A stretch of 52,323 nt of DNA from an uncultured bacterium (GCA_913062615.1 CAJXXI010000001.1:1-52323), one strand, 5' to 3'. Positions 13,860-46,860 are shown, counted from the first letter of the stretch. A program made the numbers and translations. Notes: a model not told the origin generated them from the sequence alone.

Positions 13860-13865
13860 TTCATC

Positions 13866-14731: not shown

Positions 14732-14790
14732 CCTTATACACCGCGCAGTTGGGCGCGATTATCGCCCAGTTTTGAGTGTGCGTGTCGTGT

Positions 14791-17597: not shown

Positions 17598-20500
17598 TCA
17601 TTGAATAATCATCTTTGTGCGCACAAAGATGGAGACTTCGTTGTAGCCAACGATCACGCCGCCGGCGATTGCGGTCAGCGATGTTGGGTGTCTGCCCAGC
17701 ATGCTCGGGATCGCAACTGAGATGGTGTCGAGGAGTCTTGCGTCGTGTTGATCGAGCAGGTAGAGCTTGGCTTGTGATTGATCGTCGATGGTTTCTGACT
17801 GAGCGATGAACACAACTCGGCGTTGTCCCCAAGCGACATCGATCAAGTCTGATGATTCTTTGAGCGGATCAACCGCGACGAGATTTTGGTGTTCATCGAA
17901 GGCTGTGAATCCACGCGAACTGGCGATAGAAAAGGCGTTGATGGTTGGGTGCAACTGGACCCAGCCTCGCTGGGTGATCCGCTCTCGGAGATCAAGCGGG
18001 CGTGATTCGTGGGTGCCTTCGCCCAGGCTCAGTGCCCAGAGATCAGCGTTGAAATCGAGGACGATGAGCTGATCACCCGCGATCCATGCGGTTTTCGATT
18101 CTTCGAGCGCGTCGTCTTTAAAGACCCAATCGAGCGTGCCTTCTTTGGTGTTGATGGCGACGATGCGTTGGGTGGTGGCGACGAAGAGGTTGCCGTCGTC
18201 TCCGACGCGGACCCATCTTGGGAACTGTCCGATCCGATCAATATGCCCGATGGTCTCGCCGGTGCGGGCGTCGATCGAGGCAGCGATCGATGTGATGAGT
18301 CCTTCTTGTTGTTGGGTGGGTTGGTCGGTGTATTGGATGCCGCAGATTCCGAGCACGCCGGCGTTGAGATCGATGTCGTAGAGCCGATTGGCGGGCAGGT
18401 CGATGTGCCAGAGTTGTTTGCCGGTGAAGAGGTCGATTCCCATAGCGCGTCCGATGCGATCAGAAACGATCAGTGTGTGCCCATCGGTGACGATCAGAAG
18501 CTGGGTGGTCAGGGCGGTACCTTGGACAGGGGTGGCGAACTGTCCTTCATTTCGGGCAAGGTCATCAGCGATGCGTGTGGATTTGTTTGCGATCGTTGTA
18601 CGGATATCTTCGATCGACCACACAACACGCCCGGTGGTTGTTTCGATCGCTTCGAGTGTGCCGGTGTCGTCGATCTCGATATCTTGTGCCCACAAGATCA
18701 CGGTTCGTTTGTGATCTTGCCAAGGGATGATCGGCGTGCCCATAGTCTTTGATTGTCGCGACCAAATCGTTTCGAAGGCACCGCGCCCGGCGCGGACATA
18801 CTCGATGCGTCCGAGTTGGGGTGCGTGGAGGACGATGCCGCCTTGGTCGATGCGGATCGCGGGCTTGATTGGTGAGCCGGTGAGCAGCAAGGGTTGAGCA
18901 TCGCGGATAAAGGCTTCGCCGAGCACAGGCACCTGGGCGGCGAGCTGTGCCTTGATCGCGATTTGATCGTTGGTGATGATCTCGCCAGCGATACGCAGGG
19001 TGAGGTTTGGAAAACTTTGGCTCAATGATGATGCGAGTTTTTGGGCGTCTTTGGCACGGTTGGTTGCGATCATCCCGGTGATGGCTTGCTCGGCGAGCTG
19101 ATCAACTGTTGATTGTTCGGTGTGCACGCCCAGGGCGATGAGTGATTGGGTCGCGTCTAAGCCTTTCTTTGCCGCATTGATCGACGCGGCGGCTTGGTCC
19201 TTGGTGTTCCAGAGCTTGGAAGCTTCGAGCCAGATGGTTGGGGTGCTCGTCGCCCATGGGAATCGTTTGGCGAGTTGTTCGAGCTGGGTTGGATTGATTG
19301 ATTCATCAACGAAGCTGTGCTCGGCGAGGGCGAGTTGGTCGAACTTTCGATACGGTGTGTACCCGGCGGCGTCGAGTATGGACCCAATCCGACGCGAAGC
19401 TTCGAGCCCTCCTCGCACCGCGATGCCCGCGCCCTCCCACATCGATGCGCTCAATGCGGGTTGATCGAGGATGTCTTGATACGCGCCGATCGCGTCGGGC
19501 ATGTTGTTGCGTTGTTCGTTCCACGCGCCCAGAGCCATGCGGTGGGCAACGACTTGCTGGTGCGATTGGGCGAGGGTTTCCAGGTGCGAGAGGAGTGTCC
19601 GTTGGTCGCTCGATGAGAGTGTTGTGTTTGTCGTCTGGTTTGTCGTTTCGCTTGGCGTTTGGGCTGTCGTCTGGTTTGCGTGCGACGGTTCGACCATGTC
19701 GAGCACGACAACAAAGAGCTGATCGTGCAGCACACCTCGTGATGCGAGAGGCTCTTTGGCAACGATCGCCATCGCGCGAACGACCGCGTTGACGGTGTCG
19801 TTTGTTCGATGTGCGCGATAAGCGAGTTCGGCGAGGGTGATCGCAGCTGCGGGATCGTCGGCGATGCGATCTTGGAGCATGGTTGACGCGGTGTCCCATG
19901 CGAGGTAGCTCGAAATATTCATCTCATCAACAACGATAAGCTGGCCGTTGAGTGCGAGGATATTGCCCGAAGCATCAAGATCAATCTTGTGCACAGCCTG
20001 TGGGTGGCTTGCGTCAATCACCTGCACGCCAGATTCGATCGGCACGATGAGTTGATTGTTGATCACAACCACCCGCCCGCGGATGTCGGCGGAGCCGCCG
20101 AGGATTGGTGATCGTGAGGTGGTCGCGGTTGCAAACCGTTCTGCTGAATAGATGGTCACATACAAGCTGCTGACGCACGCGATGGAATCATTGACTGCCA
20201 AGAGGTACAACGATTCGCCAACCGGGTTTGCGGGTTGGGTCGCGATGGTTTGCCCGGTGGTGAGATCGAGTTGGAGAATCTTTGTGCCGTCGGTCGTGAG
20301 GGTGAAGAGCCCGTGTTTGGTGATTGCGGGCGTGTTGTTTGAAAACGATGGGCGTGCAAACCGTGCGTACAAATCTGGCGGGGGCAAGGGCTTGGCCCAG
20401 AGCACTTGGCCGGTCGCCGATTCGATCGCGAACCCGAGCCCGATGTGATCAGTCCAGTAGATGATTCCATTGTGGAGCACGGGCGAGTGGGCGAGCTGTC

Positions 20501-21491
20501 CCATCTGTTGGAATGGGAGTGAGCCCGCGGAGGCGATTTGGCGGACCCAGAGGGTATTACCAGTGGTCGCATCGAGCCCAATGATGGCGAGGGTGATGAG
20601 CCGTTTTTTGCGGTTGTTGGTGCGTGCACCGACAATGACGACCCCTTGATCGACAATGATTTGACCTCGGATCGAAGCGTCGGCGAGCGAGGGATCGACA
20701 TCGCGGATATCGATCGCCCATTGGATGTCGCCGGTAGATGCGTTGATTTTGAGCAGACGGGTATCACCAACGCGTGAGCCATTGCGGGGCAAGCCCGCGG
20801 GTGCATAGAGATCGTTGTTGACGATGGTCAGTGTGGTCGTGTCTTCGATGATGCGTCCGATCCGGGCGCGGGCGTCGTCGGAGATAGGAAGACTCGACGT
20901 GTCAATCGCGGTCTGAAGCCTCCAAACCGGGCGGAGGGTGAACCGATCAAAGCAGGAGATCGTGACGCCGTCGTTGGTGTAGAGCATGTTGTTGGCGACA
21001 ACGGGCATGATCCATGAGGTCGGGTTCCAGTTCGCGCCAGTGAGCCTTGGCTGGTTGATGCCTTGGAGATGTTCTAGTTCGGGCTTGGGTGTGAGTGCTG
21101 CGTTGGCGAGTGCGCCCGGGACGATTCCTGTGAGCGAGATTGGGTCGGTTGATTGATCGGTGTTCCACGAGAGCGAAACAGCTGGCGATGGGCGTGCGTT
21201 GGGTTGCTTTGCGTTGAGGTATTGCTCGGCGAGCGAAACGAGTTTGGTCGTTTGATCGGAAAATGCAGGTGCGTCTGGGTGGGTTTGTAGCTCGTCAAGG
21301 ATCCGTATGCCTGCTCGGAAGTGTGCCGATTCGATCAGGGTTTGGGCGTGGTGGAGTGTGGCGATGAATCCGGGCTTGGTGAGCCAGGCGCTTTGTGTGG
21401 CGTGCTGCCAGTTGTTTTCGTCGAGCCAGACCTGGGCGATTGGGGTGATATGCGTGCGGTAGGCGTTGAGGAGATCAGGGTTGGAAAGCAC
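17598..21491 (-). CDS. Giant secreted PQQ-like beta-propeller repeat protein (BamB-like repeats plus helical/TPR-like segments); the true 5' end probably lies upstream near 21785
   Basis: There are repeated propeller signatures (TGDIQWAIDI, TGNTLWVRQI, TGQVLWAKPL, TGRVVWSIEDI, TGKQLWHIDL, EGTLDWVFKD). The track start is GTG 21491, but the frame stays open to 21827 and encodes a signal peptide (see findings). Confidence 0.7.
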   Translation of the reverse strand: MLSNPDLLNAYRTHITPIAQVWLDENNWQHATQSAWLTKPGFIATLHHAQTLIESAHFRAGIRILDELQTHPDAPAFSDQTTKLVSLAEQYLNAKQPNARPSPAVSLSWNTDQSTDPISLTGIVPGALANAALTPKPELEHLQGINQPRLTGANWNPTSWIMPVVANNMLYTNDGVTISCFDRFTLRPVWRLQTAIDTSSLPISDDARARIGRIIEDTTTLTIVNNDLYAPAGLPRNGSRVGDTRLLKINASTGDIQWAIDIRDVDPSLADASIRGQIIVDQGVVIVGARTNNRKKRLITLAIIGLDATTGNTLWVRQIASAGSLPFQQMGQLAHSPVLHNGIIYWTDHIGLGFAIESATGQVLWAKPLPPPDLYARFARPSFSNNTPAITKHGLFTLTTDGTKILQLDLTTGQTIATQPANPVGESLYLLAVNDSIACVSSLYVTIYSAERFATATTSRSPILGGSADIRGRVVVINNQLIVPIESGVQVIDASHPQAVHKIDLDASGNILALNGQLIVVDEMNISSYLAWDTASTMLQDRIADDPAAAITLAELAYRAHRTNDTVNAVVRAMAIVAKEPLASRGVLHDQLFVVVLDMVEPSHANQTTAQTPSETTNQTTNTTLSSSDQRTLLSHLETLAQSHQQVVAHRMALGAWNEQRNNMPDAIGAYQDILDQPALSASMWEGAGIAVRGGLEASRRIGSILDAAGYTPYRKFDQLALAEHSFVDESINPTQLEQLAKRFPWATSTPTIWLEASKLWNTKDQAAASINAAKKGLDATQSLIALGVHTEQSTVDQLAEQAITGMIATNRAKDAQKLASSLSQSFPNLTLRIAGEIITNDQIAIKAQLAAQVPVLGEAFIRDAQPLLLTGSPIKPAIRIDQGGIVLHAPQLGRIEYVRAGRGAFETIWSRQSKTMGTPIIPWQDHKRTVILWAQDIEIDDTGTLEAIETTTGRVVWSIEDIRTTIANKSTRIADDLARNEGQFATPVQGTALTTQLLIVTDGHTLIVSDRIGRAMGIDLFTGKQLWHIDLPANRLYDIDLNAGVLGICGIQYTDQPTQQQEGLITSIAASIDARTGETIGHIDRIGQFPRWVRVGDDGNLFVATTQRIVAINTKEGTLDWVFKDDALEESKTAWIAGDQLIVLDFNADLWALSLGEGTHESRPLDLRERITQRGWVQLHPTINAFSIASSRGFTAFDEHQNLVAVDPLKESSDLIDVAWGQRRVVFIAQSETIDDQSQAKLYLLDQHDARLLDTISVAIPSMLGRHPTSLTAIAGGVIVGYNEVSIFVRTKMIIQ

Positions 21492-28833: not shown

Positions 28834-31800
28834 ATGGATTTCGATTTGCACAACGCTTTGAACGATGACTGGATTGCACAGCTCGGTGGAGCAGACAACC
28901 CTCACACCAATAGCGTGTTTGAAAAAAACATGGCAGCACTTGGGATCAAGAACCCGCGGGCTGCTCAATCGATTATCAATGCGATGCCCAATGGTGGGCT
29001 GCGGTTTATGCAGACCGACGAGGGGGTTGAGAGCGTTGAGCTCGACGGGATCGCGTTGGCGTCTAAGCGCAAGCCGATGCAAGAAGCCAAGCGATTCGCG
29101 GAGCGGTTTGATCCCAGTGAGGTTGCGTGCTGTGCGGTTGTTGGGTTCGGGATGGGGTATCACTGCGGCACGCTGCTCGAACGGCTTGGGACATGCGGGA
29201 TCATCATTTGCTTTGAGCCTGATGTGGGGTTGCTCCGCGCGGTGTTCGAGCGGGTTGATTATTCAAAGATGATCGAGACCGAGCGGTTTTATTTGGTGAC
29301 TGATGTGGACGACCCGGCTGCGTTGACACAGATATTTGAGGGGATCGAAGCGGTGATCGGGTTGGGTGTTGAGATTCTAAGCCATCCGCCGAGTGTTCAG
29401 CGGATCGGTGATGCGAGCGGACGGTTCGGGCGGGTGTTCGGAGATGTGCTCAAGGCTACGCGAACACATGTGATCACGACGCTTGCCAATTCGCAGGTAA
29501 GTTTCCGTAATGCGATGATGAACCTGGATTATTATGCGACGAGCGCGGGGGTTGAATCGCTCAAGGACGTGTGCAAGGGCAAGCCCGCGGTGGTGGTGTC
29601 GGCGGGCCCGAGCCTGGGCCGAAACCTGGATGTATTGTGCGATCCAAACGTGCGTAAATCGGTTGTGGTGATCGCGGCGCAGACCGTACTCAAGCAGATG
29701 CTCGCGTTGGGAATCAAGCCCGACTTTGTGGCTGCGTTGGATTATCACGAGATCAGCAAACGGTTTTATGAGGGGATCAGCGCCGAGGATGTCGAGGGGG
29801 TCCGGTTGATTGTCGAAGCCAAGGCGAACCCGGCGATTCTCAACGCGTTCCCCGGTGAGGTGCTGTGCGTTTGGGATGATCTGCTTGACAACCTGCTCGG
29901 CGAAGAGCTGACACGAGAGATGGGCCGGCTGACAATGGGCGGCACAGTGGCGCACCTGTGCTACTACTTTGCTCGATACCTTGGGTGCGATCCGGTGATC
30001 TTCATCGGGCAAGACCTTGGGTTCACCGATGGGCAGTATTACTCGGCGGGCGCAGCGATCCATCAGGTGTGGTCGGGCGAACTCAATGCGCACAACACAC
30101 TCGAGATGATGGAGTGGCAGCGGATCGTGCGGATGAAGGGGTTGCTCCAAAAAAGGACAGACATCCACGGGCGATCGATCTACCTTGACGAACAGATGGG
30201 CGCATACCTCTCGCAGTTTGAATCGCAGTTTCAGCAGGATTCGGCGAGCGGTTTGATTGTGATCGATGCAAGCGAGGGCGGGGTGCGCAAGCTGCACACG
30301 ACCGTGATGACGCTCGTGCAGGCGATCGAAATCTATGGGCAGGGCGGGGAGGTGCGTGTGCCTGCGACTGTTCATCTTCGCAATGAAGACGCTGAACGAA
30401 CAAAGCAGATTCATAATCGGCTCGATTCGGTCATCGAAGACAGCGAGCGCATTGTGTATTTGAGCGAGGAAACGATCGGCGTGCTCAAAGCCATGCTCAA
30501 GGTTCAGAGCGATCAGCCGAAGGTGAACAAGCTGATTCATAAAGTGGAAGCAATCCGTGATCGGGTGGTTGTGATGGATGCAGCATTCAGATTGACCCAA
30601 GCGGTGAATCAGATTGGGGTGCTCAACCGGATGAAGCATGATCGATCGATCGAGATGAAGCCCGGCGAGACTGCGCTCGATCGCCAACGATTGCAGATCG
30701 AGCGGGATATTACCAATGTCGAGTGGACGCGCGATGCTGCCAAGGCGGTAGCTGAACAGTTGATCGCTGGGCGCGATGTGTTCCTCGGGTTGGCTACGAA
30801 AGAAACCAACGATCTGCGAGACGCTCAGCAAAGATCAGAAGCACAAGATGGGCAGGTGAGTCGAAAGGCGGTTGTTCATGCAGTGGTGATGGCTGATCCA
30901 GAGTTTGGTGGATTGGGAACCAAGCGCGATCTGGGAGCCATAATCAGCCAAGGGATGAATGCCCTCGAGCTGACCATCGCTCGGCTCGGTCGTGCATCGC
31001 AGCTCGATGGGATCACGATTGTCACGCCTGATCCGGATGCGATCCGCTGTTTGATCGGGGCGACACACACAAGCATGCCGAACATGTTGAACATGCCGAT
31101 CATTATCGCTGGTGTTGATCGTCAGCGGTTCCGCGACCGGGCAGCACGCAACGGCAGCGCGCGGGTGCAGTCGAGCGAGTGCTGGCGTGGATCGATCGGG
31201 ATGCTCAGTGTATATGACGAACAACTCCACCCCGCGTTGCTTGGTGAAGTGATGCACGAGCACGCGATTGATGCGTGCGCGATTGTCGGCGCGGATTGGG
31301 CGATGATTGATCCTGATTTAGTCAACGAGACCGTGCAGCGGTATCGGTGCCAGGACGAAGAAAAAAGGATGGCGTTCTCGCAGGCTGTGCCCGGGATTGG
31401 GACGATGGTGGTTGATCGGGCGACGGTTGATTCGTTGGCCAAGTCGATGACAGGCTCGTTGAATACTGAGCGGTCGGGGCGGAATCACTTTGCGACACTC
31501 GGTGCGTTGGTGGGGGATATCCCGACGGTGCCTCAGTTTGATCCGATCGCGAAGGGGATGTGTGTCGAGGTTGATCCGGCGGTGCGTGATGCAGGCGTTC
31601 GGGTGATGGCTGATACATCGAATCGGTCGGCGATGATGCGTGAGGCGTATCAGTCGATCGGTGGCTCTGCGGTGGAAGCGGATGCATTGCAATGTGTGGC
31701 CGGGTTCGGTGGGGCAACGAAACGATTGGGCCGCGTATGTCCGCGGACGATCGTGCTTGAGACCTGCACCGGGCGATTGGTCGGCGGCCAATGGGGAACA

Positions 31801-32562
31801 TGGAATCGAAACTCGATCGAGCCGATCGAACGCCAGGTGCTCTCGCTTGAGCGGGCCCATGCCTTGCTCCAGAGCGCGGGCGCGTTGCGCGAAGATGTTG
31901 CGGTGGTCTTTGATGGTGTGGGTGATCCATTGATGCACCCGCAGGCGTTGGCGTTCGCGCAGCTCGCCAAAGAAGACGGGATCGCGTGCGTCGAGCTTCG
32001 GACCGACTTTGGACGCGATGGGATTGATGGTGCCGAGCTGCTCGAGTCCGGGATTGATGTGCTTTCGGTTGATGTGCTCGCGGAGAACAACCAGGCGTAT
32101 GCTGCGATTACCGGCCAGGATCGGTTCGGTGATGTGTACGCTCAGATACAGTCGGTGTTCGATGCGATGCACGCGGACCAGGGGCATTCGCTGTGGTTTG
32201 TACCTCGGCTGACGCGGTGCGATGCGGCGTATGAGGATATTGAGCAGTTCTTTGATAAGTGGTTGATGATCTGCGGCAGCGCGGTGATTGATCCGATGCC
32301 TAGTGCGATCAAGACTCAACGAATTCAGCAGCTTCCGATCCCGAGCGATCGCCAACGCCAACTCGATCGTTCGACGATGTATATTCAATGCGACGGCGTG
32401 GTTATTGATCGCCATGGCGAGGCGATCGGGAGTCATGGGCGTGTGATTAACGCATTCGATCTTGGGATCGAGCAAGCGTATCAGCAGGCGTGCAGCGCGA
32501 TGCGATCTTCACAGATTGAGCCCAAAGCCGGTGTGTCGACCACAGAAGAACACGCAGCGTAA
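28834..32562 (+). CDS. Motility-accessory-factor (Maf, DUF115/MptE-like) family putative glycan transferase, fused to a nucleotidyltransferase-like domain and a Cys-less radical-SAM-like domain
   Basis: GGAGAA lies upstream of the ATG at 28834. The Maf-type N-terminus is FEKNMAALGIKNPRAAQSI. The DUF115 core is KGKPAVVVSAGPSLGRNLDVL...GIKPDFVAALDYHE...GGTVAHLCYYFARYLGCDPVIFIGQDLGF. The C-terminal ~570 aa are described in the findings. Confidence 0.75.
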   Translation: MDFDLHNALNDDWIAQLGGADNPHTNSVFEKNMAALGIKNPRAAQSIINAMPNGGLRFMQTDEGVESVELDGIALASKRKPMQEAKRFAERFDPSEVACCAVVGFGMGYHCGTLLERLGTCGIIICFEPDVGLLRAVFERVDYSKMIETERFYLVTDVDDPAALTQIFEGIEAVIGLGVEILSHPPSVQRIGDASGRFGRVFGDVLKATRTHVITTLANSQVSFRNAMMNLDYYATSAGVESLKDVCKGKPAVVVSAGPSLGRNLDVLCDPNVRKSVVVIAAQTVLKQMLALGIKPDFVAALDYHEISKRFYEGISAEDVEGVRLIVEAKANPAILNAFPGEVLCVWDDLLDNLLGEELTREMGRLTMGGTVAHLCYYFARYLGCDPVIFIGQDLGFTDGQYYSAGAAIHQVWSGELNAHNTLEMMEWQRIVRMKGLLQKRTDIHGRSIYLDEQMGAYLSQFESQFQQDSASGLIVIDASEGGVRKLHTTVMTLVQAIEIYGQGGEVRVPATVHLRNEDAERTKQIHNRLDSVIEDSERIVYLSEETIGVLKAMLKVQSDQPKVNKLIHKVEAIRDRVVVMDAAFRLTQAVNQIGVLNRMKHDRSIEMKPGETALDRQRLQIERDITNVEWTRDAAKAVAEQLIAGRDVFLGLATKETNDLRDAQQRSEAQDGQVSRKAVVHAVVMADPEFGGLGTKRDLGAIISQGMNALELTIARLGRASQLDGITIVTPDPDAIRCLIGATHTSMPNMLNMPIIIAGVDRQRFRDRAARNGSARVQSSECWRGSIGMLSVYDEQLHPALLGEVMHEHAIDACAIVGADWAMIDPDLVNETVQRYRCQDEEKRMAFSQAVPGIGTMVVDRATVDSLAKSMTGSLNTERSGRNHFATLGALVGDIPTVPQFDPIAKGMCVEVDPAVRDAGVRVMADTSNRSAMMREAYQSIGGSAVEADALQCVAGFGGATKRLGRVCPRTIVLETCTGRLVGGQWGTWNRNSIEPIERQVLSLERAHALLQSAGALREDVAVVFDGVGDPLMHPQALAFAQLAKEDGIACVELRTDFGRDGIDGAELLESGIDVLSVDVLAENNQAYAAITGQDRFGDVYAQIQSVFDAMHADQGHSLWFVPRLTRCDAAYEDIEQFFDKWLMICGSAVIDPMPSAIKTQRIQQLPIPSDRQRQLDRSTMYIQCDGVVIDRHGEAIGSHGRVINAFDLGIEQAYQQACSAMRSSQIEPKAGVSTTEEHAA

Positions 32563-32576: not shown

Positions 32577-33305
32577 ATGGAAACAAATGCGCTGGCGATT
32601 ATTTTGGCGAGGGCAGGCTCGAAAGGGTTGCCCAGCAAGAACCATGCGCTTGTTGGCGGGTTGCCTTGTGTGCAGTGGACGATTGAAGCAGCAAAGAACG
32701 CAAAGTGTGTCGGGCGGGTTGTGGTGTCGTCGGATGATGCGGATGTCAACGAGTGTGCTCGTAATCTAGGTTGTGTGATTGTTTATCGGCCTGCGGAACT
32801 CGCTCACGATACGGCGACGATTGATGATGCCGCGAGGCATGCGTACGAAGAAGTTGGCTCGCCAAATTGCCCTGTCATTATTCTGTACGCCAATGTGCCC
32901 GTGCGTCCAGAGTCATTGATCGATGATGCGGTGAAGATGTTGGTTGACTCAGGCTGTGATAGCGTGCAGAGTTATGCGGCGGTCGGCAAGCATCATCCGT
33001 GGTGGACAGTGAAGGTTGATGAGTCAGGGGCGGTATCGGCTTGGGAAGGCGATGTGTTGTATCACAACTGTTTCCGTCGTCAGGATCTACCAAGCGCACA
33101 AGTGCCCGATGGCGGCGTGATCGCGTTGACTCCTGATGCGTTGATGAATCGGGTAAATGCTGCTGATGGCCCCCACTGTTTTCTGGGGAATGATCGGCGA
33201 GGGATTATTACGAGCGAGGGCGATGTGATCGATATTGATTCGCGGATTGATCAAATAGTCGCAGATGCGATTTTGAAAGAAAGAACTGTTCATGCAGATC
33301 GGTGA
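32577..33305 (+). CDS. neuA: Acylneuraminate (nonulosonate) cytidylyltransferase, CMP-sugar synthetase
   Basis: It has LAIILARAGSKGLPSKNHALVGGLPCVQWTIEAA. AAGGA lies 8 nt upstream. I cannot distinguish Neu, Leg or Pse specificity by eye. Confidence 0.8.
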   Translation: METNALAIILARAGSKGLPSKNHALVGGLPCVQWTIEAAKNAKCVGRVVVSSDDADVNECARNLGCVIVYRPAELAHDTATIDDAARHAYEEVGSPNCPVIILYANVPVRPESLIDDAVKMLVDSGCDSVQSYAAVGKHHPWWTVKVDESGAVSAWEGDVLYHNCFRRQDLPSAQVPDGGVIALTPDALMNRVNAADGPHCFLGNDRRGIITSEGDVIDIDSRIDQIVADAILKERTVHADR

Positions 33306-34332
33306 TCGAAAAATTGGCATGAATCATCGGCCTTACATCATCGCCGAGATTGGTGTAAACCATGACGGCGAGGTGGCGCGTGCGTTGGAGTTGACCGACG
33401 CCGCGGCTGATGCAGGGGCAGACGCGGTGAAGCTTCAGTTCTTTGAGACCGATCGGTTGATGAGCAAGGCGGCCAAGCTGGCGGCGTATCAGAAGAACGC
33501 TGGCGAGACGGATCCGATCGAGATGCTCAAGCGATTAGAGCTGACGATCGACGAGATGGCGTTGGTGGTTGATCGGGCTCATGAGCGCGGGATTCATGCG
33601 ATCGTGACGGTGTTTAGTATGGAGTTGGTGGAGGCAGCTGAGACTTTGGCGTGGGACGCGTACAAGACGGCGAGCCCGGACATTGTGAATCGGCCTTTGT
33701 TGGAAGTGTTGATGGCGACTGGCAAGCCGATGATTGTGAGTACGGGGGCGAGTGAGCTTGATGAGGTTGTGCGAGCGGTTGGGTGGCTTGATGATGCGCG
33801 GGATCGGTTGGCGGTGTTGCAATGTGTGAGTTGTTATCCGGCACCAGATCCAGCTCTCGCAGGAATCCCGGTCATTCGTGACACAACAGGCTTGCCTACA
33901 GGATACAGCGATCATACATCGAATCCGGCTACTGGTCAGATGGCAGTTCGAACCGGTGCATGTATATTAGAGAAGCACCTTACCTATGACATACATGCGG
34001 CAGGTCCTGACCACTCCGCTTCATTTGAAATTAGCTTTTTCAAGTGTTACACAAGCACAGCCCGTCGGGTTGAATGGGTTCACAATACGATCGGGGAGAA
34101 AACAGTCCTCGACTGCGAACGCGATGTGCGGGAAGTCTCGCGGCAATCAGTGGTCAGTGCATGCGATATCACATTGGGCACCACGATCACGCGAGAGATG
34201 CTGACGATCAAACGCCCGGGCACCGGGATATTGGGCTTTGAGATTGATACAGTCGTTGGCCGAGTCGCAACGCGTGCGGTCGAGGCGGATGTGCCGATTG
34301 TGGAAGAGGACCTTGAATGTCAGACGAGTTGA
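33292..34332 (+). CDS. neuB: N-acetylneuraminate (nonulosonate) synthase with a C-terminal SAF domain
   Basis: It has IGDRKIGMNHRPYIIAEIGVNHDGEVARALELTDAAADAGADAVKLQ, VSTGAS, YSDHT and an SAF-like tail. It overlaps neuA by 14 nt. Confidence 0.85.
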   Translation: MQIGDRKIGMNHRPYIIAEIGVNHDGEVARALELTDAAADAGADAVKLQFFETDRLMSKAAKLAAYQKNAGETDPIEMLKRLELTIDEMALVVDRAHERGIHAIVTVFSMELVEAAETLAWDAYKTASPDIVNRPLLEVLMATGKPMIVSTGASELDEVVRAVGWLDDARDRLAVLQCVSCYPAPDPALAGIPVIRDTTGLPTGYSDHTSNPATGQMAVRTGACILEKHLTYDIHAAGPDHSASFEISFFKCYTSTARRVEWVHNTIGEKTVLDCERDVREVSRQSVVSACDITLGTTITREMLTIKRPGTGILGFEIDTVVGRVATRAVEADVPIVEEDLECQTS

Positions 34333-35450
34333 AGAAGATCATGATTGTGACCGGGACTCGGGCTGAGTTCGGGCTCTTAAGGCCGGTCATGTATGCGGTG
34401 CATGCTCAAGAACAATGCGAGCTTCGGATTATTGTTGCGGGTTCGCATTTGGTCCAGCCGGCGGTGACTTTTCGTGAAGTGAAGGCCGAGTTCGGGATCG
34501 CCGACACGATCCCGATGCAGACGGCCGGGCAGGTTGGGCGATTGGCTGATGTTGAATCACTCGGCAAAGGAATCTCGCGGTTTGGGCGATCGCTGGAGAT
34601 GAATGATCCGGATTGTGTGGTTGTGCTCGGGGATCGGATCGAGGCGTTCGCCGCGGCGAGTGCGGCGAGCATCGGCGGGTATCCGCTTGTGCATATTCAT
34701 GGCGGCGATCGCGCGGAAGGGGTCGCTGACGAAGCGATGCGCCATGCGATTACAAAGCTGGCCAATATCCATTTTCCTGCGACCCAAACCAGCGCGGATC
34801 GGATCATCAAGATGGGTGAAGACCCAGCAAGCGTGCATGTGGTCGGGTCGTCTTCGATTGATGGGCTTGATGAAATTCCAGCGATGGGCGACGGGGCGTT
34901 TGCGGAGCTTGGATCGCCTGAGGTTGTGGTGCTGATGCATCCGATCGGGCGCGGGGATGCTGACGAACAGGCTGTGATGGAGTTGGTTTTCAAGGCGTTT
35001 GAAGACAAGAAGGTGCTGGTGCTGCATCCGAACCTTGATCCTGGTCGGCGTGGGATTATGGCGGCGATTGAGTCGGCGCCGATTGATGTGCAGGTGGTGC
35101 CTCAGCTGGTACGGACGCAGTTTGTTGGGTTGCTCAAGCGGATCGGTGCAGCCGGCGGCGCGTTGGTTGGGAACTCATCAGCCGGGCTGATCGAGTGCAG
35201 TGCGATCGGGTGTCCGAGTGTGGATATCGGCGATCGACAATCTGGGCGCGAGCGCTGTGTTGGGTGGACGAGCCATGGCGATGAAGATACCCACTCGATC
35301 CGGGGGGCATTCGACACCATCACGCATTCGGACTGTGTGCGATCGGCGCACCCTTATGGCGACGGGCACACGGGCGAGCGGATCGCGAAGATTCTTGCCT
35401 CGACTGACTTCTCAACATCGAGTTTGATCCGCAAACAGTGTTCGTATTAA
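34317..35450 (+). CDS. neuC: UDP-N-acetylglucosamine 2-epimerase (hydrolysing), NeuC/LegG type
   Basis: It has KIMIVTGTRAEFGLLRPVM, VVVLGDRIEAFAAA, HIHGGDRAEGVADEAMRHAITKLANIHF and GNSSAGLIE. It overlaps neuB by 16 nt. Confidence 0.85.
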   Translation: MSDELKKIMIVTGTRAEFGLLRPVMYAVHAQEQCELRIIVAGSHLVQPAVTFREVKAEFGIADTIPMQTAGQVGRLADVESLGKGISRFGRSLEMNDPDCVVVLGDRIEAFAAASAASIGGYPLVHIHGGDRAEGVADEAMRHAITKLANIHFPATQTSADRIIKMGEDPASVHVVGSSSIDGLDEIPAMGDGAFAELGSPEVVVLMHPIGRGDADEQAVMELVFKAFEDKKVLVLHPNLDPGRRGIMAAIESAPIDVQVVPQLVRTQFVGLLKRIGAAGGALVGNSSAGLIECSAIGCPSVDIGDRQSGRERCVGWTSHGDEDTHSIRGAFDTITHSDCVRSAHPYGDGHTGERIAKILASTDFSTSSLIRKQCSY

Positions 35451-35614
35451 ATCAATAGTTTTGCATAGTCCATGCGGGTTATCACTGAGTTTTGCGTGGT
35501 TTTCGTGTACGCGAGGATGATTGTGACTCGATTGTCGGATGCGGGCGAAAGTTAGGGGTGTGGTGTGTCGATGAGCTTTATGGAAACATACCACCCAAAG
35601 CTCGGGAGCGAAGA

Positions 35615-36493
35615 ATGACGACTACTCAAGAACAGCGTGAACAAGCGGTTGCGAATGCACTCAAAGAAATCTCGCACATCGCGACGCTCCCTGAAGTCAC
35701 ACTCAAGATTATTGAACTTGTCGAAGATCCATCGAGCTCTGCTCAGGATCTCCATGAGGTGATCAGTAATGACCCAGCGTTGTGTTCGCGGATTCTGAAG
35801 GTGGTGAACTCTTCGTTCTATGGGCTTCCTGGCCAGATCGCTTCGATCAACCGAGCGATTGTGATGCTCGGGCTCAACGCGGTCAAGAACATCGCGATCG
35901 CAGCCTCGCTTACGAAGTTGTTCCGTGGCGGCGAGCTCACTCCATTCTTTAGTGCCAAAGAGCTTTGGGATCATTCGAACACGGTCGCGATCGCATGCAA
36001 GATGATCTCTGATCGTTTGGGCATGGGTCTTGGTGACGAGGCGTACCTTGCTGGGCTGATCCACGACATCGGGATTATGGTTGAGATGCAGTATGATCGC
36101 TCGATCCTGATCGACGCTCTTGATCGTTGTAATGCAGATCCATCGGGCAAGCCGAGTGTTTCGTTGCTCGAAACAGAAGAAGAAATGTATGGAGCGAACC
36201 ATCAGGACTTTGGCAAGGGGCTTTGTGAGAAATGGAAGTTCCCTGCACCGTTCGTTGCCGCTGCAGGTTTCCATCATAATCCAACCGAAGCACCATCAGA
36301 AGCCCGCAAGATTGTGTACATCGTGCATGCTGCGGACAAGATCACAGCAATGATCGATGGCGGGTTCAGGCTCGATAATCCAGAGGCTGTGATTCACAAA
36401 GAAGTCATGGAAGATTTGAATCTTACCGATGAGATCGTTCTCGACTTAATCGATAAGGTGATCGAAGCAATCAACGAAACTGATGTGGTCTAA
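35615..36493 (+). CDS. HDOD domain-containing signalling protein
   Basis: It has LPEVTLKIIELVEDPSSSAQDLHEVISNDPALCSRILKVVNSSFYGLPGQIASINRAIVMLGLNAVKNIA and LAGLIHDIG. The start is at MTTTQEQ, with GGGAGCGAAGA upstream. Confidence 0.85.
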   Translation: MTTTQEQREQAVANALKEISHIATLPEVTLKIIELVEDPSSSAQDLHEVISNDPALCSRILKVVNSSFYGLPGQIASINRAIVMLGLNAVKNIAIAASLTKLFRGGELTPFFSAKELWDHSNTVAIACKMISDRLGMGLGDEAYLAGLIHDIGIMVEMQYDRSILIDALDRCNADPSGKPSVSLLETEEEMYGANHQDFGKGLCEKWKFPAPFVAAAGFHHNPTEAPSEARKIVYIVHAADKITAMIDGGFRLDNPEAVIHKEVMEDLNLTDEIVLDLIDKVIEAINETDVV

Positions 36494-37401: not shown

Positions 37402-38895
37402 TCAGTCTTGAATCCCCAAGCCGTGTTTGAGCTCGTCTAAGTGGCTTTCGTAGCGTTTGTACTTCTGGACCGAGCTGGTGTACATTGGCTTGCGCACCTG
37501 TTCGCGTGATGCCGTGGAGATGGTTCGCTTTGATGTGTGAAAGTTGAGGATGTCTTGGGACCAATCGAAACCGAGGAACTCCATGACGCGTTTGGACTCG
37601 GCTTCTGGATCGTTGACCAGTTTTTCGTAATGCAGATCGATCATGTCGACCTCGTCGAGCGTGTGCCATGCCTGCATCATGCGTTCGTAATCTCGGTAGT
37701 ACCGCCCGAGCCAAAAGAGATCATGTGTTTGCATGTGCGGGCGAGCGAAGGCTTGGGTGTAGTTTGAGAGCATGCAATCCATCGGGTCGCGTACACAATG
37801 GATGATCTTGCACCCGGGGAACATGTGTGCGATCAGTGGCACATTGGCGTAGTTGTATGGCTGTTTGTCGGTGATCGAGCCGGTGCGTGCGACTTCGTTG
37901 TAATACACCATGGCTTCCTTGGCCATTTTTTGGATCATCTGTTTGGTGTATCGATCGCGCGTATACGCCAGTGATGGTTGGTAGGGGATGTTCGCAGGAT
38001 CGATCGGGGCGACTTGGCGTGTGATCGCGTTCATCTCGCCGCCGGGTGTGATGGCTTTGATTTGGGTGATCATCTGTTCGGTGAGCGATGTGCCAGATCG
38101 CATCATGCCGATGATGAAGATGAGCCGAGAACCATCGATCGTTGAAGTTGGAATCTTGGATCCATTCGTCCAGCAATCGATAAGTTTGTCTACTCGCTTT
38201 GTATAGACATCAGGATTCCATTGTGCTTTTTTAACTTCTTTGGAGGCTTTGTAGGCTATGAACGCTTCGTCGTATTGTTCGAGATGGTCGTTGAGCCGAC
38301 CGGTCTGCCAATGGCCCGCGATCCGGAGCTCGTCGTTGATCAACTCGTCATCAATATACTGTTTTATGTCGTCGATGGATTCTTGAGCATCTCTTACCTT
38401 AGGGGCAAGGCGTGCGCCAGAAATCGCGATCGCGAGCAGGTGGTTGATGTTGTGCTCGTCTTTGGATGTGAGTCGGCGTAAATCGTTCCATGCTTTGTTG
38501 GCATCATTCACGCGATCGAGGTCTGTGAGCACGGAGCATTTGTGGCGGAGGGCATTGAAGTGGTTTGGTTGATAGTACAATGCGCGTTCACATTCGAGCA
38601 ATGACAGATCGAACTTGCCGCCTTTTTTGAGCGCGTAGGCGTAGTCGTATCGTGCGTTGGCGTCTTTATCGTTGCAATCGACGGCTTGTTTGTAGAACGA
38701 GATCGATTCGGCGTGCCGACCTCGCTTGGCGTTTGCCTTGCCCATGAGCATGAGGACTGTTGATTGGCGGGGGTATTTTTTATCGAGTTCGGCGAGTTTC
38801 TTGAGCGGGGTTGCGAACTGGCCCGCCTCGATCGCGTCATTGATCTTTTTGAGCAAGGCAAAGAACTGTTTGCGTTGTTGAGGCGTGAGCGACAT
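37402..38895 (-). CDS. TPR-repeat-containing sulfotransferase (PAPS-dependent)
   Basis: The N-terminal half has TPR-like repeats (AESISFYKQAVDCNDKDANARYDYAYALKKGGKFDLSLLECERALYYQPNH). The C-terminal half has the 5'-PSB loop FIIGMMRSGTSLTEQM and the 3'-PB-like VRDPMDCMLSNY. The start is at MSLTPQQ (38895). Confidence 0.75.
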   Translation of the reverse strand: MSLTPQQRKQFFALLKKINDAIEAGQFATPLKKLAELDKKYPRQSTVLMLMGKANAKRGRHAESISFYKQAVDCNDKDANARYDYAYALKKGGKFDLSLLECERALYYQPNHFNALRHKCSVLTDLDRVNDANKAWNDLRRLTSKDEHNINHLLAIAISGARLAPKVRDAQESIDDIKQYIDDELINDELRIAGHWQTGRLNDHLEQYDEAFIAYKASKEVKKAQWNPDVYTKRVDKLIDCWTNGSKIPTSTIDGSRLIFIIGMMRSGTSLTEQMITQIKAITPGGEMNAITRQVAPIDPANIPYQPSLAYTRDRYTKQMIQKMAKEAMVYYNEVARTGSITDKQPYNYANVPLIAHMFPGCKIIHCVRDPMDCMLSNYTQAFARPHMQTHDLFWLGRYYRDYERMMQAWHTLDEVDMIDLHYEKLVNDPEAESKRVMEFLGFDWSQDILNFHTSKRTISTASREQVRKPMYTSSVQKYKRYESHLDELKHGLGIQD

Positions 38896-38908
38896 ATATT
38901 TCTCGTGT

Positions 38909-39643
38909 TTAGAGCCCGCGTTTGGTTGGGTTGATGACCATGTTGTCACGCCCGCAGATCAATACATCGGCGATCTCGATGGCCTCTTTGAAGCTTTCTT
39001 GGGCAAGTGCGCGATCTGCACAAGTCGGAAGCACCTTGCCTTGGTCGACATGTTCGACGGTTGGGATGGCGTCGCCGCAGACGAGCGTTGTGCGGGTGGG
39101 TTCTGACAAGAGCAATCCACACATGCCCATCGAGTACCCGGGCAACGGGAAGAGATCGACTTCGTTGACAATCGAATCCGGCGCGGGCACACACCGTGAA
39201 AGCACGGCGACATCTCTTTGAATGATCGCGAACATCGCTTCTTGATCCTCATCAAACTGATTGCCGGCGTGTTCTGCCTCTTCTTTGGCTTGGGCGAGGT
39301 TGGCGAGAGATTGGGCGATGGGCACGCCTACGGTTTCACGTTCTTTCTCAGAGATGAGCCATTGGGCTTTGTCGAAGAGTTCGATCCCGCGTCGGCATTC
39401 TGGGTTGAAGCTCGTTAAGAACACATGGGTGATCTGCTCGGGTGTGAGATTGGCGCGTTCGCCGAGCCGGGCTTTGAGGGCGGGCGCGGGCAGCCCTGGA
39501 TCAACAATGATCTTAGCATTGTTGGTCTGGATCAGTGTTGTGGTCGAATGCCCGGTTCGGACAGGGTGTCGTTCATCCCAGATCGGATGGGCCGCGAGGG
39601 TGCCGATGGAAAGAACTCGGATGTCCATACTCTGTGTAGCCAT
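38909..39643 (-). CDS. MBL-fold-like protein with a degenerate metal-binding motif
   Basis: It has the MBL strand order (IIVDPG ... ITHVFLTSFNPECRRG ... LVCGDAI). The position of the canonical HxHxDH reads SFNPEC. The start is 39643 or 39628. Confidence 0.5.
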   Translation of the reverse strand: MATQSMDIRVLSIGTLAAHPIWDERHPVRTGHSTTTLIQTNNAKIIVDPGLPAPALKARLGERANLTPEQITHVFLTSFNPECRRGIELFDKAQWLISEKERETVGVPIAQSLANLAQAKEEAEHAGNQFDEDQEAMFAIIQRDVAVLSRCVPAPDSIVNEVDLFPLPGYSMGMCGLLLSEPTRTTLVCGDAIPTVEHVDQGKVLPTCADRALAQESFKEAIEIADVLICGRDNMVINPTKRGL

Positions 39644-39721
39644 AGGCAAGAGTAGGCATGAAAAAACGGGCGATGCATCATAGGATACATCGCCCGTTGA
39701 CATTTGTGATTGAATGTATAA

Positions 39722-41065
39722 TCAGCTTGTTTCGCCGATGATCATCGCGGCTCCGACGGTGTTGTTGGTCTGCTCATCGACAATAATAAAGCTGCCCGTC
39801 ACTCGGCACTGGCGGTATGGATCAAAGAACAAAGGCTTGGTCGTGCGGATCGATACCCGACCGATCTCGTTGAGCTTGAGTTCGTCAGCTTCTTCGATCC
39901 GGTGGAGGGTCTCAATGTTGAGCTGGTAGTTCAGGTTCTTGATCACACACCGGGCCTCGTTGGAGGTGTGGCGGATGGTGTACTTCTTGCCGACCTTCAT
40001 CGGGGTGTCCGCCATCCAGACGACCATCGCATCGATGTCTTGGCCGGAGATCGGTTTGTTGTGTGTTCGGCAGAGCATGTCGCCACGCGAGATGTCGATA
40101 TCGTCTTCGAGCTGGATCGACACACTCATCGGCGGCGACGCCATCTGCTGTGGATCGCCTCCGATATCGATCGACTTGATCTTTGATTCCATCCCCGATG
40201 GCAAAGCGACGACTTCGTCGCCGACCTGGAAGACGCCCGAGGCAACCTGTCCGCCATACCCGCGATAATCATGGTGCTCGTCGCCCTGCGGGCGAACAAC
40301 CCATTGGACCGGGAAGCGTGGATCGATCATGTCGCGATCGCCCGCGATATGAACATTCTCAAGGTGGTGCAAGAGCGATGGGCCCTGGTACCAATCCATG
40401 TTTTCTGAACGGTTGACGACATTGTCGCCGGTGAGGGCGGACATGGGGATGAAGGTGATGTCGGTGATCTCAAAACGAGCAGCGAACTCTTCAAACTCTT
40501 CGCGGATCTTGTCGTATTTGTCTTGCGACCAATCGACGAGGTCCATCTTGTTCACACACACCACCAGATGCGGGATGCGCAGCAGCGAGGTGATGAAAGA
40601 GTGCCTGCGGGTCTGTTCGATCACACCATGACGCGCGTCGATCAGGATCAACGCGAGGTTGGCTGTCGAAGCGCCGGTGACCATGTTGCGGGTGTACTGA
40701 GTGTGCCCTGGGCAATCTGCGATGATGAACTTACGCTTTGGGGTCGCGAAGTATCGGTAGGCAACATCGATGGTGATGCCTTGTTCGCGTTCGGCGCGGA
40801 GCCCGTCGGTGAGCAGCGCGAGGTCCATGCGTTGATCACCACGCGAGAGCGAGGCAGATTCGGCGGCTTCGAGCTGATCCTCAAAGATCGACTTTGAGTC
40901 ATAGAGCAAACGCCCGATGAGCGTGGACTTGCCGTCATCGACCGAGCCACAAGTCAGGAACCGGAGCAGGTCCATATCGAGATAGGCGTCTGTCGAGAAA
41001 TCCATGCCCTTATTGGCGTTTGGATCGGTCGAGAAGTCGGTTTTGGATGTGGTTTCGGTGGCCAT
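39722..41065 (-). CDS. cysN: Sulfate adenylyltransferase subunit 1 (GTPase)
   Basis: It has RFLTCGSVDDGKSTLIGRLL (G1), DCPGH and NKMD. It is EF-Tu-like with no fused APS kinase domain. Confidence 0.9.
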   Translation of the reverse strand: MATETTSKTDFSTDPNANKGMDFSTDAYLDMDLLRFLTCGSVDDGKSTLIGRLLYDSKSIFEDQLEAAESASLSRGDQRMDLALLTDGLRAEREQGITIDVAYRYFATPKRKFIIADCPGHTQYTRNMVTGASTANLALILIDARHGVIEQTRRHSFITSLLRIPHLVVCVNKMDLVDWSQDKYDKIREEFEEFAARFEITDITFIPMSALTGDNVVNRSENMDWYQGPSLLHHLENVHIAGDRDMIDPRFPVQWVVRPQGDEHHDYRGYGGQVASGVFQVGDEVVALPSGMESKIKSIDIGGDPQQMASPPMSVSIQLEDDIDISRGDMLCRTHNKPISGQDIDAMVVWMADTPMKVGKKYTIRHTSNEARCVIKNLNYQLNIETLHRIEEADELKLNEIGRVSIRTTKPLFFDPYRQCRVTGSFIIVDEQTNNTVGAAMIIGETS

Positions 41066-41068
41066 GTC

Positions 41069-42007
41069 CTAGAAGTACCCTTCTTTTTTGCGATCTTCCA
41101 TCGCGGCTTCATTCGTCTTATCATCAATCCGTGCGCCGCGTTCGGATGCTCGAGCAGCGGCAACTTCAGCAACAATCTCTTCAAGATTCGATGCTGGTGA
41201 ATCCGTCGCGGCCGTACAACTCATATCGCCGACCGTGCGGAAACGCACAGTACGGTTCACAATGGTCTCGCCTTCACGAGCACCAAATGGTGCATCACCA
41301 ACAGGCACAAGCTGGCCTCGGCGTTCGACCACATCACGCTTATGAGAGAAGTAGAGATCTGGGATCTCGATTTCCTCAAGCATGATGTACTGCCAGACAT
41401 CCATTTCCGTCCAGTTCGAGATCGGGAACACGCGGATGTTCTCGCCCATGCGAGAGCGTCCGTTATACAGGTTCCAGAGTTCTGGGCGTTGGTTCTTAGG
41501 GTCCCACTGTCCGAAATCATCACGGAACGAGAAGATGCGTTCTTTAGCGCGAGCCTTTTCTTCGTCGCGGCGAGCGCCGCCGAAGAGGGCGTCGAACTGA
41601 TATTTTTCAATCGCATCAAGCAATGTCGGGATTTGTGCCCGGTTGCGTGATGGGAACGCGCCTGGATCTTCCACAGCATCGCCGCGATCGATCAGATCTT
41701 GAACCTTATGAATGATCAATCGTTCACCGATTTCGTCGACGAACTTGTCGCGAAAATCGAGGGCCTCGGGAAAGTTGTGCCCGGTGTCGATGTGGAGCAG
41801 AGGGAACGGAAACTTTGCTGGCCGGAATGCTTTTTGAGCGAGCCGAACCATAACGATGGAGTCCTTGCCACCTGAGAACATCAGCGCTGGTTTCTCGAAC
41901 TGGGCCGCCACTTCGCGCATGATGTGGATCGCCTCAGCCTCGAGGGCTTTGAGGTGGGTGAGTCGGTAGTGCTCGTGGGCACCGGGTTTTTCTATAGCCG
42001 AGGTCAT
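41069..42007 (-). CDS. cysD: Sulfate adenylyltransferase subunit 2
   Basis: It has LKALEAEAIHIMREV and the PP-loop FSGGKDSIVM. A 3-nt gap separates it from cysN. Confidence 0.9.
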   Translation of the reverse strand: MTSAIEKPGAHEHYRLTHLKALEAEAIHIMREVAAQFEKPALMFSGGKDSIVMVRLAQKAFRPAKFPFPLLHIDTGHNFPEALDFRDKFVDEIGERLIIHKVQDLIDRGDAVEDPGAFPSRNRAQIPTLLDAIEKYQFDALFGGARRDEEKARAKERIFSFRDDFGQWDPKNQRPELWNLYNGRSRMGENIRVFPISNWTEMDVWQYIMLEEIEIPDLYFSHKRDVVERRGQLVPVGDAPFGAREGETIVNRTVRFRTVGDMSCTAATDSPASNLEEIVAEVAAARASERGARIDDKTNEAAMEDRKKEGYF

Positions 42008-42273
42008 GCCAGAAGGTCTCCGCCGGGGTAACTCAGAAAAATCATAAAACGGGCATCAGCATCAATCGCTGTGCAGTTTATATCTGTCTCATCCATCGGC
42101 CGATCTTTCCCGCTCCGAGAGCGGGAAATCAGGATTCGTGAGACTATTGAGCCGAAGTATAGACCATAATCAGACATATTCACGGGCGATAGATGCCCGA
42201 TAATCGTGCTTGTTGAATCGAAGTACGATATTGTCCATCACAAGCCCCATCAGCACCCGCTGGAGACACCGCA

Positions 42274-42930: not shown

Positions 42931-42947
42931 GCCGAGCGAGTGCGGGT

Positions 42948-45554: not shown

Positions 45555-45645
45555 TCCTGAATATCGTGAAACCGATTATTTTGTCTCGATCGCCCTGTGG
45601 ATGGTTTATCGAACACATTCTTGATGAACTTGTCACCCTCTGTGA

Positions 45646-45654
45646 TGGTATAAT
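45646..45654 (+). promoter_or_regulatory. Extended -10 promoter-like element TGGTATAAT upstream of the PAP phosphatase gene
   Basis: It matches TGnTATAAT exactly, about 150 nt upstream of the ATG at 45803. The only -35-like hexamer (TTGTCA 45630-35) is spaced 13 nt away, so it is not convincing. Confidence 0.3.
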
Positions 45655-46834: not shown

Positions 46835-46860
46835 AGAACGCACACAAGGAATCAAACACA

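Follow-up and report, generated by a model that had tools for sequence, protein, structure and literature searches.

We analyzed a stretch of 52,323 nucleotides of DNA from an uncultured bacterium (GCA_913062615.1, CAJXXI010000001.1:1-52323), referred to here in its entirety as the window. The host is a marine bacterium of the class Phycisphaerae. On its plus strand the window contains an uninterrupted open reading frame (ORF) that starts with GTG and encodes 1255 amino acids. We found that this ORF is a fusion of two genes. Its product consists of a complete Maf glycosyltransferase, a linker of ~30 amino acids, and an extension of ~560-570 amino acids. The extension is the product of a normally separate gene, here called X, that has been joined in frame to the 3' end of maf (Table 1). 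The fused gene is followed by neuA, neuB, neuC, and a gene with an HDOD domain. The locus is a Maf protein-sialylation system with an unprecedented partner, a pseudo-radical S-adenosylmethionine (SAM) protein, which in the window is fused to Maf.

A previous description of this DNA, generated by a model from the nucleotides without database searches (the sequence-only reading), had reported that the Maf ORF continues for ~570 amino acids and that Maf proteins are usually about half as long as this one. We agree on both points. Beyond the regions matched by Maf models, ~570 amino acids of the ORF are without annotation, and the peptides that had been quoted were found in their places: AVVHAVVMADPEF begins at residue 692 (nt 30868) and CPRTIVLETCTGR occupies residues ~982-994 (nt ~31740). 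The Magnetospirillum Maf 5mu5 has 632-666 amino acids, and the Mafs encoded by separate genes in Phycisphaerae have 648-699.

The first part of the ORF is a full Maf. In Pfam searches the ORF matched MptE-like/DUF115 and, weakly, Maf_flag10_N, and nothing else. The NCBIfam flagellin-modification model PseD spans residues 243-652. We modeled residues 41-1240 with AlphaFold2 (predicted local distance difference test, pLDDT, 91.1; predicted template modeling score, pTM, 0.88). The best Foldseek match of this near-full-length model was the Magnetospirillum Maf 5mu5 (E 3e-18, 725 aligned columns). Separately encoded Mafs from two other loci (L001 and L004) align with window residues 42-659. A G-Q-D-L...D motif was invariant among 49 homologues and may include the counterpart of the conserved catalytic aspartate of the MAF_flag10 domain, which is D247 in Maf-1 and D261 in Maf-2 (bioRxiv 10.1101/2023.12.03.569772). 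The linker that follows the Maf module had the lowest pLDDT of the full-length model, and its position matches that of the ATGA stop/start overlap found where maf and X are split.

By sequence, the extension (residues ~690-1255) had no match in the PDB. Pfam gave nothing significant for it, with PF04055 the sole match below threshold (15.3 bits, threshold 29.5). We made an AlphaFold2 model of residues 684-1255 from a 49-sequence alignment (pLDDT 91.2, pTM 0.91) and compared it with the PDB using Foldseek. The model matched SuiB, DesII, BlsE, viperin with CTP, SkfB, CteB, MoaA, BtrN, and EpeE (E 1e-7 to 1e-5), all of which are radical SAM enzymes that have SPASM/twitch domains or that use nucleotide or sugar substrates. 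The same search found the cytidylyltransferase 6oew (template modeling score 0.64-0.69). The near-full-length model also matched these radical SAM and cytidylyltransferase structures, after 5mu5. Based on profile alignments, we attribute the radical SAM matches to the C-terminal half of X and the 6oew match to the N-terminal half.

The N-terminal domain of X has a Rossmann fold of the nucleotidyltransferase (NT) or GT-A-like type. Profile support for a cytidylyltransferase was weak, with IspD (4kt7) and 6oew at E ~0.1, and there was no match of the domain to the cytidylyltransferase families of Pfam (PF02348 and PF12804) at E<=10. The domain retains the strand-helix motif G-x-x-(V/L)L-x-x-T(L/I)-x-R(L), and residues R730, R790, W797-R798-G799, D808, D839, F861, A864, P866, and G867 are at least 90% conserved. 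The N-terminal nucleotide loop of the PAR..S.R..K type is not conserved among the homologues. In the connector that leads to the next domain, G903, Y908, P910, D916, P917, C923, and D940 are each conserved in at least 92% of 442 sequences, and C923 is the only cysteine that is >90% conserved across the whole family. Residue 908 (nt 31516-31518) is an aspartate in the window, versus a tyrosine in 97% of the 442 members, and is a lineage-specific change.

We found that the next domain is a radical SAM barrel without the cluster motif. The model has six beta/alpha units, forming a partial (beta/alpha)6 TIM barrel, with a Foldseek probability of 1.00 to many radical SAM structures. When the region was searched in isolation, residues ~1012-1157 gave sub-threshold matches to radical SAM models, the best of which was TIGR04321 ("spiro-SPASM protein", E 2e-6). 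The motif CX3CX2C is absent from the window and from all of the ~450 family members examined, both fused and standalone. In an HMMER alignment to BtrN, the family has arginine, glycine, and leucine at the three cluster-cysteine positions (R994, G998, and T1001 in the window). The arginine at the first of these positions, five residues after E989, was invariant in a nine-sequence alignment (A1). A nearby cysteine, Cys991, lies two residues after E989 and three residues before the first cluster position, and is present in 58% of fused versus 2% of standalone homologues. From the BtrN alignment and the cysteine counts, we rejected Cys991 as a surviving cluster ligand. The conserved residues of the barrel are E989, G1041, G1043, D1044, T1070, Y1102, D1154, and W1156. 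The G1043-D1044 pair aligns with the G-E of the GGE motif of BtrN and is 95-97% conserved.

The last part of X is a twitch/SPASM-like subdomain that, in the fused forms, has lost its cysteines. The motif CX17C...CxxC-WHRP is kept by 81 of 116 standalone X proteins, and a profile of standalone X matched the twitch domain of BtrN (E 5e-6) with the cysteine ligands aligned. The twitch cysteines are missing from 200 of 202 fused forms, including that of the window, in which arginines (R1188 and R1206) replace the first two cysteines and there is no C-terminal CxxC. The SPASM/twitch ligand pattern CX9-17GX4C ... CX2C is therefore absent from the window protein. Since the ligands of both the radical SAM cluster and the twitch cluster have been lost, the fused module cannot carry out radical or redox chemistry.

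These results largely support what the sequence-only reading had said of the extension. Its order of domains, an NTP-transferase-like domain and then a radical-SAM-like barrel, is borne out by the AlphaFold models and the Foldseek matches. The usual cytidylyltransferase signature and the CxxxCxxC cluster, both of which it had reported as absent, are indeed lacking in the window, and neither is a feature of the family. Its judgment that the radical SAM fold is probably catalytically dead gains support from the absence of both CX3CX2C and the twitch ligands. It had counted three modules; these are present, but there is a fourth part, the degenerate twitch/SPASM subdomain. It was mistaken in stating that one of the three cluster cysteines remains. 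None does, and Cys991 is off-site.

In most Phycisphaerae, X is a separate gene of ~540 codons directly downstream of maf. Three such X proteins have 549 (P0007), 536 (P0008), and 538 (P0341) amino acids, and split X aligns with window residues 719/730-1203. The stop codon of maf and the start codon of X share an ATGA overlap in the two loci for which the DNA was read (P0007 and P0008). The gene for P0007 is followed by a neuA-neuB fusion and neuC, and that for P0341 by neuA, neuB, neuC, and an HDOD gene; the contig with P0008 stops at the X gene. The order in the window (maf-X, neuA, neuB, neuC, HDOD) is the order at the split loci.

We surveyed the locus by scanning one genome per GTDB species (alignment A4). 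All of the 78 loci found were in the Planctomycetota, class Phycisphaerae (Phycisphaeraceae, Tepidisphaerales, and Humisphaera, with two complete genomes among them). The maf gene was separate and directly upstream of X in 61 loci and fused to it in 9, and the flanking sequence was too short to tell in 3. One or more of neuA, neuB, and neuC were downstream of X in 64/78 loci. In this class maf is almost always paired with X, and the two lead an operon of the order maf-X-neuA-neuB-neuC. Together, neuC, neuB, and the CMP-sugar synthetase constitute a minimal route to a cytidine monophosphate (CMP)-sialic-acid-type donor for Maf. The HDOD gene occupies the same place at several loci, both fused ones and those of Tepidisphaerales, and its product may regulate the operon.

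Gene fusion and fission are frequent throughout the maf-X-neu operon. At many split loci, neuA and neuB form one gene of ~590 codons (e.g., L001, 11671-13452); they are separate in the window. In two metagenome-assembled genomes of Phycisphaeraceae (L024, 164-2059; L027, 3972-5894), the gene before X is not maf and encodes a protein of 630-640 amino acids with FlgI-like (P-ring) and HEAT-repeat regions.

A homology search with the single window sequence returned only 8 proteins, and we used profile searches to define the family. In a collection of 5.8 billion proteins, a profile search found >100 clusters (at 90% identity) of proteins of 1150-1300 amino acids with the same architecture, covering 86-100% of the extension in the alignment. 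When 1.84 billion representatives were searched exhaustively with HMMER, 587 proteins, in forms of ~1200 and ~540 amino acids, matched at E<1e-30. The closest relative of the window protein is 85-87% identical over its full length.

A neighbor-joining tree of 311 representatives had two clades. The fused clade contained 159 fused sequences and, scattered among them, 10 short metagenomic gene calls that are probably truncated. The standalone clade consisted of 125 sequences that keep the twitch cysteines, 16 that lack them, and a single fused form (P0197, at L057 3760-7512). P0197 alone among the fused forms retains all four twitch cysteines, and its X is closest to standalone X. Either this fusion arose independently and recently, or the stop codon at the ATGA overlap was lost in assembly. 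The simplest history would have four steps. An ancestral enzyme with an NT domain and a radical SAM/twitch region would have lost the radical SAM cluster before the family diverged. It would then have been recruited as the gene following maf and, in one lineage, would have lost the twitch cluster and been fused in frame to maf.

We used 49 fused homologues to compare the conservation of the parts of the protein. Mean pairwise identity was 64% for the MptE-like core, 45% for the Maf helical region, 44% for the Maf N-domain, 41% for both the NT-like domain and the barrel, 37% for the connector, 32% for the twitch remnant, and 22% for the linker. Across the 442 fused and standalone sequences, conservation reaches 90% or more at approximately 35 positions. 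Judged by these identities, the X domains are about as conserved as the non-catalytic domains of Maf, and are not decaying.

We think it somewhat probable that X is a stoichiometric, non-radical accessory subunit of Maf that recognizes or positions a substrate. Maf enzymes need an acceptor-binding module. In Maf-1 this is a TPR domain at the C-terminus, whereas Maf-2 depends on GlfM, a small protein encoded directly downstream; the authors of that work, Unay, Kint and Viollier, also discuss the interconversion of split and fused forms (bioRxiv 10.1101/2023.12.03.569772). We propose that X is an accessory subunit because it holds the genetic position of GlfM and shows the same split and fused behavior. 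On this view X would have begun as an enzyme, and its conserved pocket and surfaces would by now serve to hold a substrate for Maf, which may be the CMP-nonulosonate donor or else the acceptor protein, probably flagellin. The pTM of 0.88 over 1200 residues, with the linker alone uncertain, suggests a defined packing of the Maf and X halves, and we infer that Maf and X also form a physical complex where they are encoded separately. From the known role of the Maf family, with weak context from FlgM, encoded 2 kb upstream in the window, and from the FlgI-like genes next to X in two other genomes, flagellin would be the target. The partnership of Maf and X is solidly shown by the loci; the mechanism is what we infer from it.

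Several observations weigh against an accessory subunit of this kind. Five of the 78 species loci have no adjacent maf despite enough flanking sequence, and there is no flagellin gene within the window. The pTM, an indirect measure, is the sole indication of contacts between Maf and X. The four-cysteine twitch site in most standalone X proteins is a probable [4Fe-4S] site, and before the fusion X may have served Maf in a redox or catalytic capacity unlike that of the fused form. The conserved charged and polar residues in the enzyme-like folds (R730, R790, R798, D808, D839, D916, D940, E989, D1044, and D1154) fit a small-molecule pocket or residual catalysis at least as well as they fit protein docking. 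X might still be an enzyme whose non-radical chemistry modifies either the nonulosonic acid donor or the sugar once transferred. For example, the NT-like domain might transfer a nucleotidyl or phosphate group, or the barrel might use a nucleoside cofactor in a polar reaction, and the fusion would serve to channel the altered donor to Maf. Arginine, aspartate, glutamate, and tryptophan residues are strongly conserved in both domains, which have enzyme folds, the G-x-G-D motif of the putative SAM site is 95-97% conserved, and the nearest structural relatives use nucleotides or sugars (viperin with CTP, DesII, BlsE, BtrN). A tailoring step would also add to an operon that is otherwise a minimal three-gene donor pathway, and the conservation of X equals that of the Maf domains. 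However, the signatures of both parent enzymes, the nucleotide-binding loop and CX3CX2C, are gone, and an intact, separate neuA already supplies CMP activation. Linkage of 1:1 and fusion to the transferase, and not to neuA, neuB, or neuC, is more typical of a subunit. On balance, we consider it rather unlikely that X is a tailoring enzyme.

Other explanations fare worse. The barrel could be a working radical SAM enzyme whose [4Fe-4S] cluster is held by non-canonical cysteines. The X region of the window has 12 cysteines, and cluster sites other than CX3CX2C are known in the SAM-radical enzymes Dph2 and ThiC. However, the fused clade has only two well-conserved cysteines, C923 (92%) and C1142 (79%), with no third above 58%, and a non-canonical cluster is therefore unlikely. 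With arginine invariant at the first cysteine position in the nine-sequence alignment, the sequences come close to refuting such an enzyme, and we regard it as extremely improbable. It is also very unlikely, if slightly less so, that the extension is a functionless relic, the decaying remains of a radical SAM enzyme that the fusion left attached to Maf. The fused clade is without any Fe-S ligand, and the twitch remnant is the least conserved of the folded parts, as a relic would predict. However, the full length has been kept in >150 divergent representatives, identity in X is near that of Maf's own domains and far above that of the linker, dozens of positions are near-invariant, and the fold is predicted with high confidence. 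The least credible alternative, to which we assign almost no weight, is that an error of sequencing or assembly joined maf to the next gene, for example by loss of the stop codon at the ATGA overlap; the sequence-only reading had raised the concern of a frameshift or mis-join. Split homologues overlap by only 4 nt and one indel could join them, and the lone fused form P0197 sits among standalone sequences. However, the >100 clusters with this architecture are from independent contigs of up to 3 Mb and from many projects and assemblers, the linker of the window protein is missing from the split genes, and the fused forms make up a coherent clade with its own sequence features. Because the fused forms are one large clade, we take an artifact to be excluded on these comparisons and the fusion to be genuine.

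The surroundings of maf-X contain a few genes that may be related to it (Table 1). FlgM is the sole flagellar marker in the window and is found at the same position in a syntenic TARA locus (L083, 7687-7986, minus strand). A gene of 205 codons is divergent from maf. It has homologues directly upstream of maf at L001 and L002 (Pfam DUF4440) and at ~20/78 species loci; from its sequence, the product has two probable hydrophobic helices, and the gene is possibly part of the maf-X system. A set of sulfation genes (37402-48711) adjoins the sialic-acid operon, is in part syntenic in L083, and may point to sulfated glycans. Within this interval (42948-45554, minus strand), a gene for a protein of 585 amino acids with a phosphopantetheine attachment site adjoins an ORF for an AMP-binding enzyme of 266 amino acids, and this adenylation ORF may be split or truncated. 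Farther upstream (17598-21491, minus strand) is a gene for a PQQ-repeat/BamB-like beta-propeller protein of 1297 amino acids, with a counterpart of 1389 amino acids at the same relative position in L083. Near 14 kb (~13000-16300), the sign of the GC skew switches from negative to positive beside dnaA (14791-16302, minus strand), and this site is probably the chromosomal replication origin.

Table 1. Positions of the fused maf-X gene, its parts, and neighboring genes in the window.
Feature	Residues or length	Position (nt)	Strand	Basis or remarks
Fused maf + X gene	1255 aa	28795-32562	+	Single ORF; full-length homologues of 1150-1300 aa
Maf glycosyltransferase module, complete (N-domain, MptE-like/DUF115 core, long helical domain)	~42-663	28918-30783	+	PF01973, PseD, 5mu5
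MptE-like/DUF115 core	239-412	29509-30030	+	PF01973, 123.4 bits (gathering score 34.6)
Fusion linker	~664-692	30784-30870	+	pLDDT 53-69; 22% mean pairwise identity
Cytidylyltransferase-like (NT/GT-A-like) domain of X	~693-890	30871-31464	+	6oew fold match; canonical N-terminal nucleotide-binding signature absent
Connector, motif G..Y.P..PQxDPI....C...RD..R...D	~891-982	31465-31740	+	Conservation
Pseudo-radical-SAM partial TIM barrel	~983-1170	31741-32304	+	CX3CX2C replaced; GGE-like G-x-G-D kept
Degenerate twitch/SPASM-like subdomain	~1171-1240	32305-32514	+	Four cluster cysteines gone; beta-hairpin and helix in model
neuA-like CMP-nonulosonate synthetase		32577-33305	+	Same operon; PF02348; best NCBIfam match PseF-like, below cut-off
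neuB-like nonulosonate synthase		33292-34332	+	PF03102 and SAF; NeuB_NnaB 280 bits, PseI 180 bits
neuC-like hydrolysing UDP-GlcNAc 2-epimerase		34317-35450	+	TIGR03568 NeuC_NnaA, 281.6 bits (cut-off 235.9)
HDOD/HD-domain gene		35492-36493	+	Right after neuC; recurs at L062-L064, L066, L068, L070, L072, L073, L082, L084
FlgM anti-sigma-28 factor gene	100 aa	26501-26800	-	2 kb upstream of maf-X; PF04316, 28.9 bits (gathering score 25)
Gene divergent from maf	205 aa	28049-28666	-	Faint DUF4440/DUF1275 matches
TPR-sulfotransferase		37402-38949	-	
cysN		39722-41065	-	
cysD		41069-42007	-	
APS kinase		42274-42930	+	
CysQ-like phosphatase		45530-46834	+	
CitMHS/SLC13-type transporter		46861-48711	+	

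Maf proteins are widespread flagellin sialyltransferases, and the way in which they select acceptor and donor is just beginning to be understood; the description of their TPR and GlfM partners dates from 2023 (bioRxiv 10.1101/2023.12.03.569772). X is a new and very different partner, a large former enzyme that is found across an entire bacterial class in split and fused forms, and these forms are a natural experiment for dissecting Maf function. Guilt by association with Maf also provides a first functional handle on proteins with the orphan annotations spiro-SPASM and "SPASM domain-containing protein". Current annotations of the ~200 fused proteins stop at "DUF115" or "MptE-like" and leave half of the length unaccounted for. 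The family illustrates a series from radical SAM enzyme to pseudoenzyme in which the radical SAM cluster was lost, then the twitch cluster, followed by fusion.

The catalogued family most similar to X is TIGR04321 (spiro-SPASM). Standalone P0007 matches positions 87-506 of the 510 in this model (~121 bits, E 1e-35) and P0249 matches positions 78-483. The match spans part of the N-terminal region, the barrel, and the SPASM/twitch end, and both families have lengths of ~510-550 amino acids. JGI labels one homologue 'spiro-SPASM protein' and others "SPASM domain-containing protein" or "SpsF / radical SAM". However, standalone homologues score 30-122 bits against a cut-off of 250 bits, and the window protein scores 21.8-26.5 bits over ~150 residues (model positions 259-408 only). 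The window form also differs in being fused to Maf and in having lost the SPASM/twitch cysteines. The family name implies spirochaetes, whereas X is found in Phycisphaerae; there were no spirochaete members of TIGR04321 among the matches listed from our profile searches, and the A4 genome scan gave only Phycisphaerae. A tblastn search of plasmids found only an unrelated Calothrix radical SAM protein. X is thus a sister of TIGR04321, a catalogued but uncharacterized family, and its building block is already in databases. The sequence-only reading had considered the architecture undescribed. This stands for the link to Maf, as we found no relevant paper on TIGR04321, TIGR04347, any association of Maf or flagellin glycosylation with radical SAM/SPASM proteins, or flagellin sialylation in Phycisphaerae in the literature searched; it does not stand for the building block, which is catalogued near TIGR04321. 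The haloarchaeal family TIGR04347 ('pseudo-SAM/SPASM protein'), which from its NCBIfam name is presumably another pseudo-radical-SAM family, gave weak cross-matches (E ~1e-3). It is a different family with a different architecture, without the NT-like domain and without a known link to Maf.

Among characterized enzymes, the barrel of X, in which a GGE-like motif is kept, shares its fold with BtrN, DesII, BlsE, and viperin, which are radical SAM enzymes with twitch or SPASM domains that act on sugars or nucleotides. The twitch domain of standalone X aligns with that of BtrN, as described above. Unlike these enzymes, the X family is without CX3CX2C, the window form is without auxiliary ligands, and X has an extra, NT-like domain at its N-terminus. 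That domain shares its fold (6oew) and the strand-helix motif with the cytidylyltransferases SpsF, NeuA, KdsB, and IspD, but X has no Pfam match to them, its nucleotide loop is not conserved, and a genuine neuA is present as a separate gene. A dead partner with an enzyme fold is not without parallel. GtfA/GtfB is the O-GlcNAc transferase of serine-rich repeat adhesins, in which a catalytically dead partner with an enzyme fold binds the acceptor. The logic proposed for X is the same, by analogy only; the folds are unrelated (a GT-B pair in GtfA/GtfB), and the sugar and the target are different.

The N-terminal 660 amino acids of the window protein are a full Maf encoded beside CMP-nonulosonate genes, like the Mafs of M. 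magneticum (5mu5), PseD, and Maf-1 and Maf-2 of S. oneidensis. Split X resembles GlfM in being encoded directly downstream of its Maf, and fused X resembles the TPR of Maf-1 in being a C-terminal domain. Gene position, downstream or C-terminal, is all that X has in common with these modules. We rejected the possibility that the extension is GlfM, which is a small four-helix bundle. The fold of X is not that of a TPR or of a four-helix bundle; X is a former enzyme of 540 amino acids and two domains. We tentatively suggest that X-type proteins, possibly including spiro-SPASM proteins of spirochaetes, could be a third, structurally unprecedented class of obligatory Maf partner or specificity subunit, derived from a BtrN-like sugar-modifying enzyme that lost its radical SAM cluster and then its auxiliary cluster before it was absorbed into Maf, or else could provide a new, cluster-independent way of tailoring sialic acids.

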